Shown here: positions 1-17,969 of the stretch, one piece after another | Layout of the letters: each line of letters begins with the position of its first letter | Numbering within the stretch: position 1 is the first letter of the stretch | From: a virus | Lineage: Duplodnaviria > Heunggongvirae > Uroviricota > Caudoviricetes | Direction: 5' to 3' (one strand) | DNA: 64,000 bases | Virus record (IMG/VR): IMGVR_UViG_2939521961_000009 | The notes under the pieces: model-generated | Told to the model about the DNA's origin: nothing | Databases searched by the model: none | The model's input: the letters and a program-made list of their open reading frames with translations, nothing else | Position numbers and translations under genes: made by a program

Positions 1-1201
1 TCCAGTTGCCATCTCCCCGTGATTCCGCACCATAATACCCGGCAGAAGCGATATCCGGGTCGTGCTCCGGCAGGTTGGTCGCGGTTTTATTACCGAACTC
101 ATCGTGCATCAGTGGAACAAAGTGAATGTTCTCGGAAGCCCGGTTTTTATATCCGCTATAAATGGTTTCATATGCCGCCGGGTTCTTCTCTTTCCAGTCA
201 TAGGTTGTGTCACCACATAACCACGGCACACTGTCTGATGAACCACCAATACACTGACCGGAGAAAGCACCAAGATCCGCACGGAATTTTTTCACCATCG
301 CAGTAAACTGGGCACCATGCTGGGCCGGGGTCGCTTTAAGGTCTCCTTCCCCCTGAATCCATACGACAGATAACAGCACATTCTTTGGATTCGCCTCAAG
401 TGCCGCTTTAGTTCGACTGACAAGATCCTGATACAGTGGGGTATCCACTCCCCAGCGTAGTGACGCCTCGGCTGCACCACTTGCCGGATCGAATGAGCCA
501 ACTGCGCCGGTTGTAAAAGCAGAGCCGCCACGGGCACAGGGAACCAGTAAAATCCCGGCATCAGCAGGAATCACCGGTAATACTTTTTTCGCAATATGAA
601 GTCCCTGCCCCACACAACCATACTGCCCTTTTTTCAGGTCTGCTTTTGGATGGTTCAGCAGACTCATATTCTGAACATCATGAAGGCAGTGATCTGCTGG
701 AATGATTTCATTGTATTTGCAGGGAATACCTCCGGGGGTTTGTGTATTCCTGCGTGCCAGCTGCATAATACGTGGATCAGGACGATCATAAGAATCCGGA
801 AGGGGCAACCCTTCACCATAAGATGAAGCATTGGACTGGCCGGCTATAACAATCACGTAATACCAGGAAGGGGAGCTGGAAGCAGTTTCATTTCCTGACG
901 GACGGGTATGTGTTTCAGCATTATCCCAGTCTGACGGTTCAGCAGTACCGGCAACATCAGCACTTAACGGAATGACCGCACCAATACCCGCTCCGGTAAT
1001 TTCCACACTCGGATCACCGGATACTGGCCTTACCCACAGGCAATCCCGTGTATTAAAACTGATGAGACAGTCAGCAAATGTCATTCCTCCTTTTGTTTCG
1101 GCCGGAGGAAAGGGAGCCTCAAGAAATGCCGCTGTACCACCGGAAACTTTAACAGTAAAGTTTCCGGGCATTGATGATAGTTGAACCCATTTGGACGTCA
1201 T
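1..1201 (-). CDS. SASA/DUF303-family sialate O-acetylesterase-like protein (NanS-p-like), N-terminal ~400 aa; continues beyond window start
   Basis: Manual translation from ATG at 1201 (MTSKWVQLSSMPGNFTVKV...) stays open to position 1; absent from ORF track because no stop in window; contains VIVIAGQSNASSYGEG resembling the GQSN catalytic block of SASA esterases. Confidence 0.5.
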   Translation of the reverse strand, partial: MTSKWVQLSSMPGNFTVKVSGGTAAFLEAPFPPAETKGGMTFADCLISFNTRDCLWVRPVSGDPSVEITGAGIGAVIPLSADVAGTAEPSDWDNAETHTRPSGNETASSSPSWYYVIVIAGQSNASSYGEGLPLPDSYDRPDPRIMQLARRNTQTPGGIPCKYNEIIPADHCLHDVQNMSLLNHPKADLKKGQYGCVGQGLHIAKKVLPVIPADAGILLVPCARGGSAFTTGAVGSFDPASGAAEASLRWGVDTPLYQDLVSRTKAALEANPKNVLLSVVWIQGEGDLKATPAQHGAQFTAMVKKFRADLGAFSGQCIGGSSDSVPWLCGDTTYDWKEKNPAAYETIYSGYKNRASENIHFVPLMHDEFGNKTATNLPEHDPDIASAGYYGAESRGDGNW

Positions 1202-1300
1202 AATAATCAGCCTGTTCCTGAATAAACTGAATTATCATATCCACAGACCGATAAACGCCATTTTGCGTTAATTCAGTAAAGGCCCAACAAAGAGAGCGTC

Positions 1301-1861
1301 TTATTTTTCCGAAACGCTCGCAGGATAATAACGATAAAGGGTTGAAAGACCGATATCAAAAATAAGTGCCACCTGTCTTCGACTGACACCCCCGGCCAGT
1401 AAACGCCCGACCTGCTCGTATTGTTCCTGCGTGAGACGGCGGGGTCTGCCGCCGGTTCGTCCCCTTTCACGGGCAGCTGCAAGACCAGCCCGTGTCCGTT
1501 CGACAATTAATTCACGCTCCATTTCTGCCAGCGCACCCATTATGTGAAAAAAGAAACGCCCCATGGGGGTTGACGTATCAATGTTGTCAGTAAGACTACG
1601 AAAATTTATCCCCTGTTGCTGTAATTCATCTGTCAGCGCAACAAGGTGGCGCATACTGCGCCCCAGCCTGTCCAGTTTCCAGACCATCAGTGTGTCACCG
1701 GGTTTTAGTTTCTTCAGTGCCCGCTTCAGTCCCGGCCGCTGTGTCGTTTTACCACTCATTTTGTCTTCAAAAATCTGCTCACATCCTGCACATTCCAGCG
1801 CATTTCTTTGTAAACCGGTGTTCTGGTCATTTGTTGATACGCGTATATAGCCAATCAGCAT
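1301..1861 (-). CDS. pin: DNA invertase, Pin/Gin/Hin-family serine recombinase
   Basis: 186 aa, MLIGYIRVSTNDQNTGLQRNAL... with catalytic Ser motif and C-terminal HTH; near-identical in pattern to e14 Pin / Mu Gin as recalled. Confidence 0.9.
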   Translation of the reverse strand: MLIGYIRVSTNDQNTGLQRNALECAGCEQIFEDKMSGKTTQRPGLKRALKKLKPGDTLMVWKLDRLGRSMRHLVALTDELQQQGINFRSLTDNIDTSTPMGRFFFHIMGALAEMERELIVERTRAGLAAARERGRTGGRPRRLTQEQYEQVGRLLAGGVSRRQVALIFDIGLSTLYRYYPASVSEK

Positions 1862-1916
1862 GTATTTACCTTCCTTAAAAAGAGGTGAAAATGCCTTTTA
1901 AAACAGATATACGGTA

Positions 1917-1942
1917 TCCCTGAAAACCTCGGTTTACGGGAA
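1917..1942. other. gix/pix-like recombination crossover site (left)
   Basis: Reverse complement reads TTCCCGTAAACC GA GGTTTTCAGGGA, closely matching the Mu gix site as recalled (TTCCTGTAAACC GA GGTTTTGGATAA). Confidence 0.6.
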
Positions 1943-2083
1943 ACGGTAAATAAGGCGGCGAATGCCCTGCCATCGAACGGAACGGCTGTTGCAGCGAATA
2001 AACTCGCCACTCCAAGAAATATTAATGGTGTCCCATTTGACGGAACGCAGGATATAAATATTACATCGGGGATGACGCAGTCT
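1931..2083. repeat. Inverted repeat, left copy (~155 bp) of invertible segment
   Basis: Plus-strand 1931-2083 is near-identical to reverse complement of 3152-3304 (e.g. shared GGTTTACGGGAAACGGTAAATAAGGC). Confidence 0.8.
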
Positions 2084-2287
2084 GTGGCTGACTCACGTTA
2101 TGTTCAAAGCATTCGAAGAGGTTCAAGGTCAACGATTGGAATGCAATATAATATTTTTGAAGTTCCTGACGGATGCGTACTTACAGGGCTTGATGTCGCT
2201 GGTGATGGTAATGCAACGGTAACCGCATATTATCGACCTGTTCAGTTTCTGATAGATGGTTCGTGGAAAACAGCTTCCAGCGCATAA
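1931..2287 (+). CDS. Alternative tail-fibre C-terminal segment (S'v-like), no own start, silent in current orientation
   Basis: Open frame through the left repeat into unique sequence ...SVADSRYVQSIRRG...YYRPVQFLIDGSWKTASSA; parallels the expressed fibre tip. Confidence 0.55.
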   Translation, partial: GLRETVNKAANALPSNGTAVAANKLATPRNINGVPFDGTQDINITSGMTQSVADSRYVQSIRRGSRSTIGMQYNIFEVPDGCVLTGLDVAGDGNATVTAYYRPVQFLIDGSWKTASSA

Positions 2288-2366
2288 AAGTGCAGTAGTT
2301 CAAAAAACAGATTATCTGAATAAATATATGATGATTTTGTCTTTTCAACAAAAACAAGGTGAAATA

Positions 2367-2888
2367 ATGGAGCTTATTAACGTAAAACGATATTACCCGG
2401 AACACAAACCCTATGGTGAGGATGTTCAGTATTTCCAGAGTGAGGACGGAAGGGATTTTTATGAATCTATCCCGCTTTTCACAAAGAAATACAAACTCTG
2501 TATTTCGCCTGTAACGGGTATTATCTGCTCTGTTGCTGAAGATGTCTCTGCTTTATATCCGGCAGGTTTTACTGTTGTTGAAGTGGACGAACTGCCGGAA
2601 GGTGTGAATATTGACGGTAACTGGCAGTTTTCTGATGGCCTGATATCAAAGGTGCCGGTAAACTGGAAGACGGTTGCTGAAAAGCGTCGCTCATCGCTGC
2701 TCCAGGAAGCCAACGAAACCGTGGATGACTGGAAAACAGAATTAAAACTGGACATGATTAGCGATGAAAATAAATTACAGCTGACGCGCTGGATGGCGTA
2801 TATCCGACAGCTTAAAGAAATGCACTTTAATGATATTGCCAGTGAGGGGCATTACCAGGCGATTCCCTGGCCGGAAAAACCGGAATAA
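2367..2888 (+). CDS. Tail fibre assembly protein (Tfa/U-like), in the currently inverted (non-expressed) orientation
   Basis: MELINVKRYYPEHKPYGEDVQYF... typical Tfa N-terminus; AAGGTGA Shine-Dalgarno 5 nt upstream of ATG at 2367; ORF track lists a longer 2256 start. Confidence 0.8.
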   Translation: MELINVKRYYPEHKPYGEDVQYFQSEDGRDFYESIPLFTKKYKLCISPVTGIICSVAEDVSALYPAGFTVVEVDELPEGVNIDGNWQFSDGLISKVPVNWKTVAEKRRSSLLQEANETVDDWKTELKLDMISDENKLQLTRWMAYIRQLKEMHFNDIASEGHYQAIPWPEKPE

Positions 2889-2922
2889 TTCAGAGGGTGC
2901 ATTCAGCACCCTTTTCTGTGGT

Positions 2923-3834
2923 TTACACTGAACTTACCGTTCTCCAGGCATTATTAATATAAATCTGAACCGGGCGATAATAGACCCCACCGATATTGTC
3001 CGCAGACCGGGAGCCGGTTTCCTGCACGTTAATACCGGAAAGCATACAACCGGAAGGTGCGCTGTAATTCCATGATATTTCATTGCCTCCGGGTGAATGA
3101 TAGCTCTGTGCTCCAAGCTGAACATTCTGTACATACCGGCCATCTGCGGTTGACTGCGTCATTCCTGACGTGATGTTGATATCCTGCGTTCCGTCAAAAG
3201 GAACGCCATTAATATTTCTTGGGGTGGCGAGTCTGTTTGCTGCCACGGCGGTTCCACCCGATGGCAGGGCATCAGCAGCCTTATTTACCGTTTCCCGTAA
3301 ACCGACGTTATCGATAAAAGCGCCTTTATCCGGAATGTCTGCGCCGTTCTGCTCCCTGCGCAGGTAACGGTTATCACCTTCGCTTTTGCTGTAAACATCC
3401 AGATTATTACGGGCGGTTCCCGCATTCTCCAGGTCGGCAAGGTTCTGATCCTTCGCCAGAGCATTAACGTCACCGGGACCAAGACTGTTTTTTGTGGCAA
3501 GCGCCCCAAGACCAAGATAACCACGGGCAAGACGCTGGGCTTCCGCACCGGCATCAGCAATTTCTTTCAGGTTGTTTTTCCGGGAAAAGGCATTCGCAGC
3601 GATAATGGCTTTAATGGACAGCGTAAGCTGGTTTAACTGCGCCTTATCCGGCTGAATACTGGCTTCAGCCAGAATATTCAGCAGTTCGGCCTGGAGAATA
3701 TTCAGCCAGTCCTGACCAATCCAGCTGATACCTTTTTGTCCGTCACCTTCGGTAAACCAGGTGGTGGTATTACTCTGCGCCGGTGCCAGCGCAGGCATAT
3801 TCGCCACGCCGGAATTATTATCAACATGAAACAT
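2923..3834 (-). CDS. Tail fibre protein (Mu S-like); constant N-terminus fused to the currently expressed variable tip
   Basis: 303 aa; C-terminus crosses the gix site and right inverted repeat; start overlaps stop of upstream gene at 3834. Confidence 0.8.
   Translation of the reverse strand: MFHVDNNSGVANMPALAPAQSNTTTWFTEGDGQKGISWIGQDWLNILQAELLNILAEASIQPDKAQLNQLTLSIKAIIAANAFSRKNNLKEIADAGAEAQRLARGYLGLGALATKNSLGPGDVNALAKDQNLADLENAGTARNNLDVYSKSEGDNRYLRREQNGADIPDKGAFIDNVGLRETVNKAADALPSGGTAVAANRLATPRNINGVPFDGTQDINITSGMTQSTADGRYVQNVQLGAQSYHSPGGNEISWNYSAPSGCMLSGINVQETGSRSADNIGGVYYRPVQIYINNAWRTVSSV
3152..3304. repeat. Inverted repeat, right copy of invertible segment
   Basis: Reverse complement matches 1931-2083; encodes the conserved ...ATPRNINGVPFDGTQDINITSGMTQ stretch in both tail-fibre variants. 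Confidence 0.8.
3292..3317. other. gix/pix-like recombination crossover site (right)
   Basis: TTCCCGTAAACC GA CGTTATCGATAA on plus strand; shares the 12-bp half-site with the left site in inverted orientation. Confidence 0.6.
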
Positions 3835-17848: not shown

Positions 17849-17969
17849 ATTGCCTCCGTATAAAATATGAATATAAAATAAGCAGGCGGTCAGTGTACGC
17901 TTAACTGGTAAAGTCGGTGCCTGCCTCCGGGTGGATCATGTATGCGGGTTCGACCCCCGCCACTGACCG

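Follow-up and report, generated by a model that had tools for sequence, protein, structure and literature searches.

The 64,000-nucleotide stretch of viral DNA recorded as IMGVR_UViG_2939521961_000009 (hereafter the window) opens within a gene coding for a putative sialate O-acetylesterase of the NanS-p type, which lies next to a DNA invertase gene at the right end of a Mu-like prophage. Translation of the minus strand of window positions 1..1201 gave 400 codons without a stop and with the frame still open at the window start, a run expected by chance at about (61/64)^400, or roughly 5e-9. The open frame, the Pfam SASA match and the matches to the PDB entries 3pt5 and 6yp6 identified these codons as the 5' part of a gene of 682 codons, and the motif VIVIAGQSNASSYGEG was located at residues 116-131 of the frame (window 809-856). 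An earlier note, made from the sequence of the window alone, had described here a large minus-strand gene with a GQSN-type motif, directly downstream of the invertase gene (pin) at the right end of a Mu-like phage and incomplete in the window, and had assigned its product to the SASA family of esterases. These statements were borne out by our analyses: the invertase gene, whose product carries the Resolvase and HTH_7 domains, is found on the same strand 99 nucleotides (nt) away, and the annotation of the matching prophage is that of a Mu-like phage with the esterase gene directly after the invertase gene.

Ten complete Escherichia coli records matched window positions 1-2400 at 100% identity. 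In these genomes the frame continued for a further 282 codons beyond the window start before reaching its stop codon, giving a protein of 682 residues, and no premature stop was found past the window edge in the matching genomes. The flanking sequence was taken from both O157:H7 strain 380-94 (locus L001) and strain War (locus L044), in which the complete gene occupies L001:11153-13201 and L044:8143-10191 and the encoded proteins are identical. The 682-residue protein corresponds to WP_044078958 with 10 additional N-terminal residues; the Prokaryotic Genome Annotation Pipeline (PGAP), which names the product 'DUF6645 domain-containing protein', places the start at window 1171, 10 codons after the ATG at 1201. 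Two observations make the ATG at window 1201 the more probable start: the 10 residues upstream of the PGAP start are kept in relatives of 62% and 31% identity, and a 682-residue form is the representative of a cluster of 535 sequences.

Catalytic and C-terminal domains of the esterase

The SASA/SGNH catalytic domain, delimited by alignment to 3pt5 and by conservation in 22 alleles, spans window 1..865 on the minus strand and is cut by the window edge. The Pfam family SASA (PF03629) was detected in the window part with E=4e-14 and 53.1 bits and in the full 682-residue protein with 51.3 bits, in both cases against a cutoff of 24.8. Residues 94-419 (PGAP numbering) matched the structure of NanS, also known as YjhS (PDB 3pt5, E=3e-110), with 55% identity over 322 residues and with a serine and a histidine aligned. 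The serine, that of the GQSN motif, is Ser123 when numbered from the long start and is encoded by window 833-835; the histidine, His408 in the motif ...ATHFSSW, lies 8 codons outside the window. GQSN and (S/T)HFS(S/A)W were invariant in all 22 distinct alleles, and this serine and this histidine reportedly form the catalytic pair of NanS.

On its N-terminal side the catalytic domain is preceded by a linker rich in Ser, Thr, Pro and Ala and ending in ...ASSSPSW (window 866..961, minus strand), which was delimited by the start of the blastn homology, by domain-wise identities and by a low predicted local distance difference test score (pLDDT). On its C-terminal side, outside the window, DUF6645 was detected in the full protein with E=8e-26, and residues 468-669 (PGAP numbering) matched PDB 6yp6, the lectin-like C-terminal domain of NanS-p, with E=9e-42. 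No hydrophobic stretch resembling a signal peptide was found at the N-terminus.

The protein shares with NanS-p the catalytic domain, the lectin-like jelly-roll domain, a length (682 residues) greater than that of NanS and its encoding by a prophage; a DUF1737 N-terminus and a location in a lambdoid late region between Q/stx and the lysis genes were not found. By homology the product of the gene is a NanS-p-type sialate O-acetylesterase, and this enzyme assignment is safe and ordinary; the databases already give the names 'sialate O-acetylesterase' or 'DUF6645 domain-containing protein'. The view of the earlier note that the enzyme is of the NanS-p kind held for the parts that match 3pt5 and 6yp6 but not for the N-terminus, where DUF1737 is missing and another domain is present. 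A further architecture of the esterase body was observed in the 752-residue relative P0118, in which a phage tail collar domain (PF07484) accompanies DUF1737, SASA and DUF6645.

The N-terminal domain

The first ~80 residues (window 962..1201, minus strand) make up a lineage-specific domain, predicted to be all-beta, at the place of DUF1737. No Pfam match to DUF1737 (PF08410) was obtained in either the window part or the full protein. Lambdoid NanS-p proteins could be aligned only from about residue 96, and the N-terminal segment was 12-24% identical to its lambdoid counterparts. At the DNA level, blastn homology (~67%) to lambdoid nanS-p extended from query position 436 (about window 865) to the stop codon, and its starting point coincided exactly with the first strand of the SASA domain.

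Residues 1 to ~80 gave no Pfam family even at E<=10. An exhaustive phmmer search against 1.84 billion representative proteins returned five matches, four of them Enterobacteriaceae sequences or fragments of the same gene and the fifth a repeat-protein match judged spurious. A search of one genome per species (185,579 species) gave no match, a word-indexed protein search gave fragments only, and tblastn of the Salmonella N-terminal domain against sequenced phages recovered only two Mu-like insertions that were already known. The domain was restricted to Mu-like prophages of E. coli, Shigella and Salmonella.

An AlphaFold model built with a four-sequence alignment predicted an all-beta domain (pLDDT 68-82 over residues 1-70) and after it a disordered linker rich in Ser and Pro, with low pLDDT in residues 80-137; a single-sequence model of the 400-residue window product reached a pLDDT of 33 and no use was made of it. 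Comparison with viral models by Foldseek gave weak matches to free-standing, uncharacterised tailed-phage proteins of 85-95 residues (template modelling score ~0.6, E ~4e-3), and a search of PHROGs gave a weak match to phrog_4772, a family of 79 positions without an assigned function. As far as the predicted model goes, these matches describe the shape of the domain and not its function.

Position of the esterase gene in Mu-like prophages

Analysis of the matching genomes indicated that the invertase gene is followed by the esterase gene, a DUF1378 gene, a DUF826 gene, an open reading frame (ORF) on the opposite strand, com, mom and a Mu-type end. The DUF1378 protein has 59 residues and one membrane helix, and the DUF826 protein has 81 residues. 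The genes com (66 residues, Pfam Zn_ribbon_Com) and mom (245 residues, Pfam Mom, E=7e-77) lie outside the window, ~1.1 kb past the esterase stop codon, and were present and intact in every genome matching the window. Since com and mom are present downstream, and since gin and com are only 95 bp apart in Mu as against a slot of ~3.3 kb in this lineage, the esterase module is, to judge from gene order, a ~3.3 kb insertion between the invertase gene and com and not a replacement.

A scan of IMG/VR with the alignment of the N-terminal domain yielded 34 loci, and all 34 keep, as far as the contigs extend, the order baseplate J, gp48, fibre, (invertible segment and invertase), esterase, DUF1378, DUF826, com and mom. 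Seven of these loci (L021, L022, L026, L029, L032, L035 and L036) lacked a detected invertase gene, and in them the esterase gene comes directly after the fibre or fibre-assembly genes; all seven carry the N-terminal domain of type B. Prophage Sp18 of strain Sakai, sequenced since 2001, has ECs_4993, annotated as 'hypothetical protein', in the same position, and in a Salmonella enterica Mu-like prophage a 31%-identical N-terminal domain is fused to a GQSN esterase after the invertase gene. Read from this synteny, the esterase slot is a stable feature of the Sp18-type Mu-like phage lineage.

The opposite-strand ORF between DUF826 and com (L001:10131-10596, plus strand) is frameshifted here and intact in Sakai as ECs_4996 (154 residues); the C-terminal part of the ECs_4996-type ORF contains two CPAC motifs and resembles a small zinc ribbon. 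The mom gene was absent after com in some Mu-like phages that are similar in other respects, L002 (Mu_JNE082796) and two IMG/VR contigs (L006 and L011). At the place of mom, L002:9396-10448 holds an ORF of 350 residues that, with its GTPCQAFS motif, resembles a C5-cytosine DNA methyltransferase; if it is one, it would represent a swap of the anti-restriction modification enzyme.

Upstream of the esterase gene, beyond a spacer of 99 nt (window 1202..1300, minus strand) defined by direct reading and covered by a promoter/terminator scan, lies the gene of a Gin/Pin-type DNA invertase of 186 residues (1301..1861, minus strand; Pfam Resolvase, E=1e-51, and HTH_7), annotated as recombinase family. 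It is followed by a tail-fibre region resembling the invertible G segment (1922..3312), which is bounded by 185-nt inverted repeats at 1922-2106 and 3128-3312 found by an inverted-repeat search, and which includes a Caudo_TAP tail-fibre assembly gene identified with Pfam (2367-2888, plus strand). The repeats are 81% complementary. The segment contains one tail-fibre assembly gene and one alternative fibre C-terminus, where Mu has two of each, and in the window orientation the expressed fibre gene, of 303 residues, has no assembly gene downstream. In strain War the invertible segment is flipped.

Mosaicism and distribution of the esterase alleles

Alignment of type-A genes revealed that the N-terminal domain and linker were 97-100% identical while the SASA domains were 67% and the lectin domains 35-42% identical, and that the identity between alleles switched from 100% to 67% at ...SSSPSWYYV, in the linker. 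The two domains of the Sakai-type body were 81% and 82% identical to those of 933W and 67% and 42% identical to those of the window allele, whose lectin domain had its nearest counterpart in the Stx1 phage YYZ-2008 (59%). Downstream in the same loci the DUF1378 proteins were 59% identical and the DUF826 proteins 96-100% identical, which places DUF1378 inside the exchanged segment. On these identities the exchanged segment is made up of the catalytic domain, the lectin domain and DUF1378, and the N-terminal domain stays with the Mu-like backbone. No sequenced lambdoid counterpart of the window body was found above ~68% identity, and a recent wholesale transfer from a sequenced lambdoid phage was rejected, the best DNA identity being ~67%.

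Of 5426 complete E. coli genomes, 205 carried DNA of the N-terminal domain, which lay at 246 places in all, with up to four copies per genome and at varying sites; among the matches listed, the carriers were mostly Shiga-toxin-producing. The window body allele occurred in 43 genomes, was never annotated as DUF1737-containing and was Mu-like in the contexts inspected, and the 682-residue window allele was at least 99% identical in 43 of 45 matching records. Truncated or frameshifted copies of the esterase gene were seen in L008, L020 and L037. Locus L043 (strain 2014C-3011) and three similar records hold rearranged remnants of a Mu-like right end, in which an esterase gene lacking its 5' part abuts a truncated integrase gene and IS66 elements by nleC, with a separate 5' fragment ~4 kb away.

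The three-gene module in lambdoid phages

The earlier note had placed esterases of this kind near the tail-fibre genes of lambdoid phages; in the three that were compared (933W, YYZ-2008 and PhiR12_2) nanS-p comes instead after Q or stx and before the holin/lysis genes. Downstream of nanS-p, 933W has a DUF1378 gene (54% identical to that of the window lineage), a DUF826-like ORF and then holin. The DUF826-like ORF of 933W was judged by reading the sequence and was not detected by tblastn; tblastn with the DUF826 protein, having missed 933W, is too insensitive to count lambdoid carriers. The order in PhiR12_2 is Q, nanS-p, a 60-residue ORF, a DUF826 homologue matched by tblastn and then holin, and the 60-residue ORF is taken to be of the DUF1378 type from its size and position.

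Because the same three genes occur in the same order in 933W and PhiR12_2, the esterase-DUF1378-DUF826 module is, on gene order, common to two unrelated phage backbones. The lysis genes of the Mu-like prophage are ~23 kb from the esterase gene, and entry of the trio into such a backbone suggests that the DUF1378 and DUF826 proteins may act together with the esterase and not in lysis. The DUF826 homologue of PhiR12_2 (L126:3501-3791) is named 'head completion protein' in the PhiR12 and PhiR5 records; this name is probably an annotation artefact, since PHROGs lists phrog_311 as a family of unknown function.

The carrier prophage and the rest of the window

Among the products annotated in the matching prophage are a Mu transposase, an AAA ATPase, Gam, Mor, a gpT major head protein and homologues of the baseplate proteins gp44-48. 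This annotation, the detection of com and mom by Pfam, the varying insertion sites and the Sp18 gene order are those of a Mu-like prophage. It spans the window up to a boundary at ~35,838. Strain War (L044:4624-5988, L045:1321-1548) was the only record in the collection to cover at least 80% of the prophage-host junction query of the window (100% identity). In strain War the prophage lies within the portal gene of a Qin-like lambdoid prophage, in 380-94 within an adhesin gene and in Sakai within sorM, a variation that is expected because the phage is transposable.

The remainder of the window (~35.8-64 kb) is the Qin-like lambdoid prophage, with terminase, lysis genes, cold-shock genes, relBE, hokD, dicB and integrase, and without a nanS-p of its own. 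At window ~17,889-17,968, between the virion-morphogenesis and head-morphogenesis genes, PGAP annotates a 'tRNA-OTHER', at which ARAGORN found no tRNA.

Proposed function and alternative explanations

We consider it likely, with a probability of about 0.8, that the gene is intact and encodes a three-part phage esterase of the NanS-p type, located in a module slot of the Sp18 type and having a body that recombines. The homology, the domain architecture, the synteny, the mosaicism of the alleles and the conservation of the catalytic residues described above carry this reading; what the enzyme acts on, when it is expressed and what its N-terminal domain does are inferred. The protein consists of a ~80-residue N-terminal beta domain, a flexible linker, the SGNH/SASA domain and a C-terminal lectin-like jelly roll. 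The most likely reaction of the esterase is the O-deacetylation of 9-O-acetylated sialic acids, with Ser123 and His408 as nucleophile-base pair; every NanS-p allele of EDL933 and O104:H4 that has been tested was active on Neu5,9Ac2 and on the O-acetylated sialic acids of mucin (PMC8065619; PMC8319020). The C-terminal domain probably targets the enzyme to glycans, as proposed for NanS-p. The esterase gene heads an accessory module, with the small membrane protein DUF1378 and with DUF826, in a fixed slot running from the invertase gene to com-mom, and the segment from the catalytic domain through DUF1378 has been exchanged with other alleles by recombination within the Mu-like lineage. Because no signal peptide is present, the enzyme would gain access to the sialic acids of mucin only through phage-induced lysis or on the particle.

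Several observations weigh against this reading. The window allele is only 64-68% identical in its SASA domain and 35-59% in its lectin domain to the other alleles compared, and an allele this divergent could differ in substrate or glycan preference. Prophage Sp18 was reported to be intact and not inducible by mitomycin C (PMC2669165), so that release of the enzyme would need spontaneous induction and the timing of expression would differ from that of the SOS- or Q-driven lambdoid copies. The scan of the minus strand revealed no terminator in the 99-nt spacer, and the best promoter matches near it were 9-of-12, no more than shuffled sequences give, and none was assigned; since the spacer has no strong promoter or terminator match, read-through of the esterase gene from the invertase gene is possible. 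The type of N-terminal domain did not co-vary with the major capsid protein: type-B domains (60% identical) are found alongside capsid proteins that share 97-98% identity with that of the window, and one type-A domain occurs with a 92% capsid protein. This independence lends no support to co-adaptation with the capsid.

The role of the N-terminal domain bears on a second explanation, which overlaps the more conjectural part of the preferred one and which is possible although the odds are against it, namely that the domain anchors the esterase-lectin body on the head or tail of the Mu-like particle and that the phage, through mucus adherence or penetration, benefits from it more than the metabolism of the lysogen. 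In phage phi24B the DUF1737 of gp84, a NanS-p, forms hexamers plugged into the capsid hexons, and the enzyme is suggested to be cleaved off later at Ser-Pro-rich linkers (bioRxiv 10.64898/2026.04.10.717836). Here another small domain with a flexible Ser/Pro-rich linker stands at the DUF1737 position, is confined to Mu-like prophages and remains fixed to their backbone while the body is exchanged; the esterase gene comes after the tail-fibre genes and shares their strand, the nearest structural matches are small free-standing tailed-phage proteins, and a weak match to phrog_4772 was obtained. These fold matches are, however, weak and unannotated, the type of the domain does not track the sequence of the capsid protein, and a search of the prophage's own ORFs with a hidden Markov model found no paralogue, which argues that the domain does not derive from one of the prophage's own fibre or baseplate proteins. 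That the N-terminal domain plays a role equivalent to that of DUF1737 on the Mu-like particle is our favoured guess, at chances equal to or slightly below those of the anchoring just described; it would be the most economical inference because a different small domain with a similar linker is found at the same position and is inherited with the backbone. With similar or slightly lower probability, NanS-p-type esterases in general may be virion-display enzymes with an N-terminal plug swappable per lineage and a body that circulates by recombination in the linker. If so, DUF1737 would be the capsid plug of lambdoid podoviruses and the new domain the plug for the particles of Mu-like myoviruses, a decoration or attachment domain so far unrecognised, and DUF1378 and DUF826 would serve the esterase and not lambdoid lysis.

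Esterase-bearing tail spikes of some E. coli phages deacetylate host surface glycans for receptor access. An aid to adsorption of this sort, by deacetylation of the O-antigen, the capsule or another envelope polysaccharide of the host, is suggested by the position of the gene directly after the invertible host-range module of the tail fibres, or directly after the fibre genes in the seven loci without a detected invertase gene, and by the tail collar domain of P0118; the possibility was raised for NanS-p generally in a review (PMC8065619). It is nevertheless unlikely, considering that the enzyme is 55% identical to NanS, a dedicated sialate esterase, and 68% identical to active NanS-p alleles, that the same module is found amid late regulatory and lysis genes in lambdoid phages, that features of trimerisation or of a spike were not seen, and that the PHROG matches of the full protein are families of unknown function save for one weak 'tail protein' match (E=1e-6). 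The interpretation of the gene as decaying cargo, a lambdoid nanS-p pseudogene remnant deprived of its N-terminus, could appeal to the few truncated, frameshifted and rearranged copies; it was rejected as very improbable, for the window allele is a full ORF conserved in nearly all matching records, its catalytic residues are conserved, and the relatives of 62% and 31% identity also have its N-terminal extension, which is a conserved coding domain. Replacement of com-mom by the esterase gene at the Mu right end, as the earlier note had supposed when nothing downstream of the gene could be read within the window, is the least credible of all and was likewise rejected, com and mom having been found beyond the esterase gene in every window-matching genome and in most related loci.

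Comparison with known systems

The esterase resembles lambdoid NanS-p in its SASA/SGNH domain (68% identical, with the GQSN serine and the histidine kept), in its C-terminal jelly roll (DUF6645, 6yp6), in the absence of a signal peptide and in the DUF1378 and DUF826 genes downstream. It differs in having an unrelated beta domain of ~80 residues without a Pfam family instead of DUF1737, and in being carried by a transposable Mu-like myovirus in a slot between invertase and com-mom rather than between Q/stx and holin; because of this location the esterase of the window lineage would not be under Q antitermination. With the chromosomal 9-O-acetyl-N-acetylneuraminate esterase NanS (YjhS) the identity is 55% over the whole catalytic domain, with the serine and histidine aligned, whereas the solved NanS chain, of 337 residues, consists of the catalytic domain only, without the N-terminal and lectin domains. 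NanS is encoded in a sialic-acid operon and is exported. The right end of the prophage is like that of Mu in its invertible fibre segment, Gin-type invertase, Com, Mom and a transposon end beginning with TG, all in the same order and orientation, and unlike it in the ~3.3 kb with the esterase, DUF1378, DUF826 and opposite-strand ORF that replace the 95 bp between gin and com of Mu.

The literature searched contained no mention of a nanS-p in a Mu-like phage, of ECs4993 or of an alternative to DUF1737. NanS-p is thought to let Shiga-toxin-producing E. coli, which have several copies per strain, feed on the O-acetylated sialic acids of mucin. Counts of nanS-p have so far been linked to lambdoid prophages and the DUF1737 architecture, and the Mu-like copy is missed by such counts; it rides on a transposable phage, reportedly not inducible by the SOS response, in ~4% of complete E. 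coli genomes, mostly Shiga-toxin-producing ones among the matches listed. The parts worth experiment are the domain swap and the shared three-gene module. The window gene represents a natural domain swap in which the enzyme and the lectin domain are kept and exactly the domain that binds the capsid in phi24B is replaced, and it could tell whether such enzymes are general components of virions and what the two small companion genes do away from a lysis cassette.

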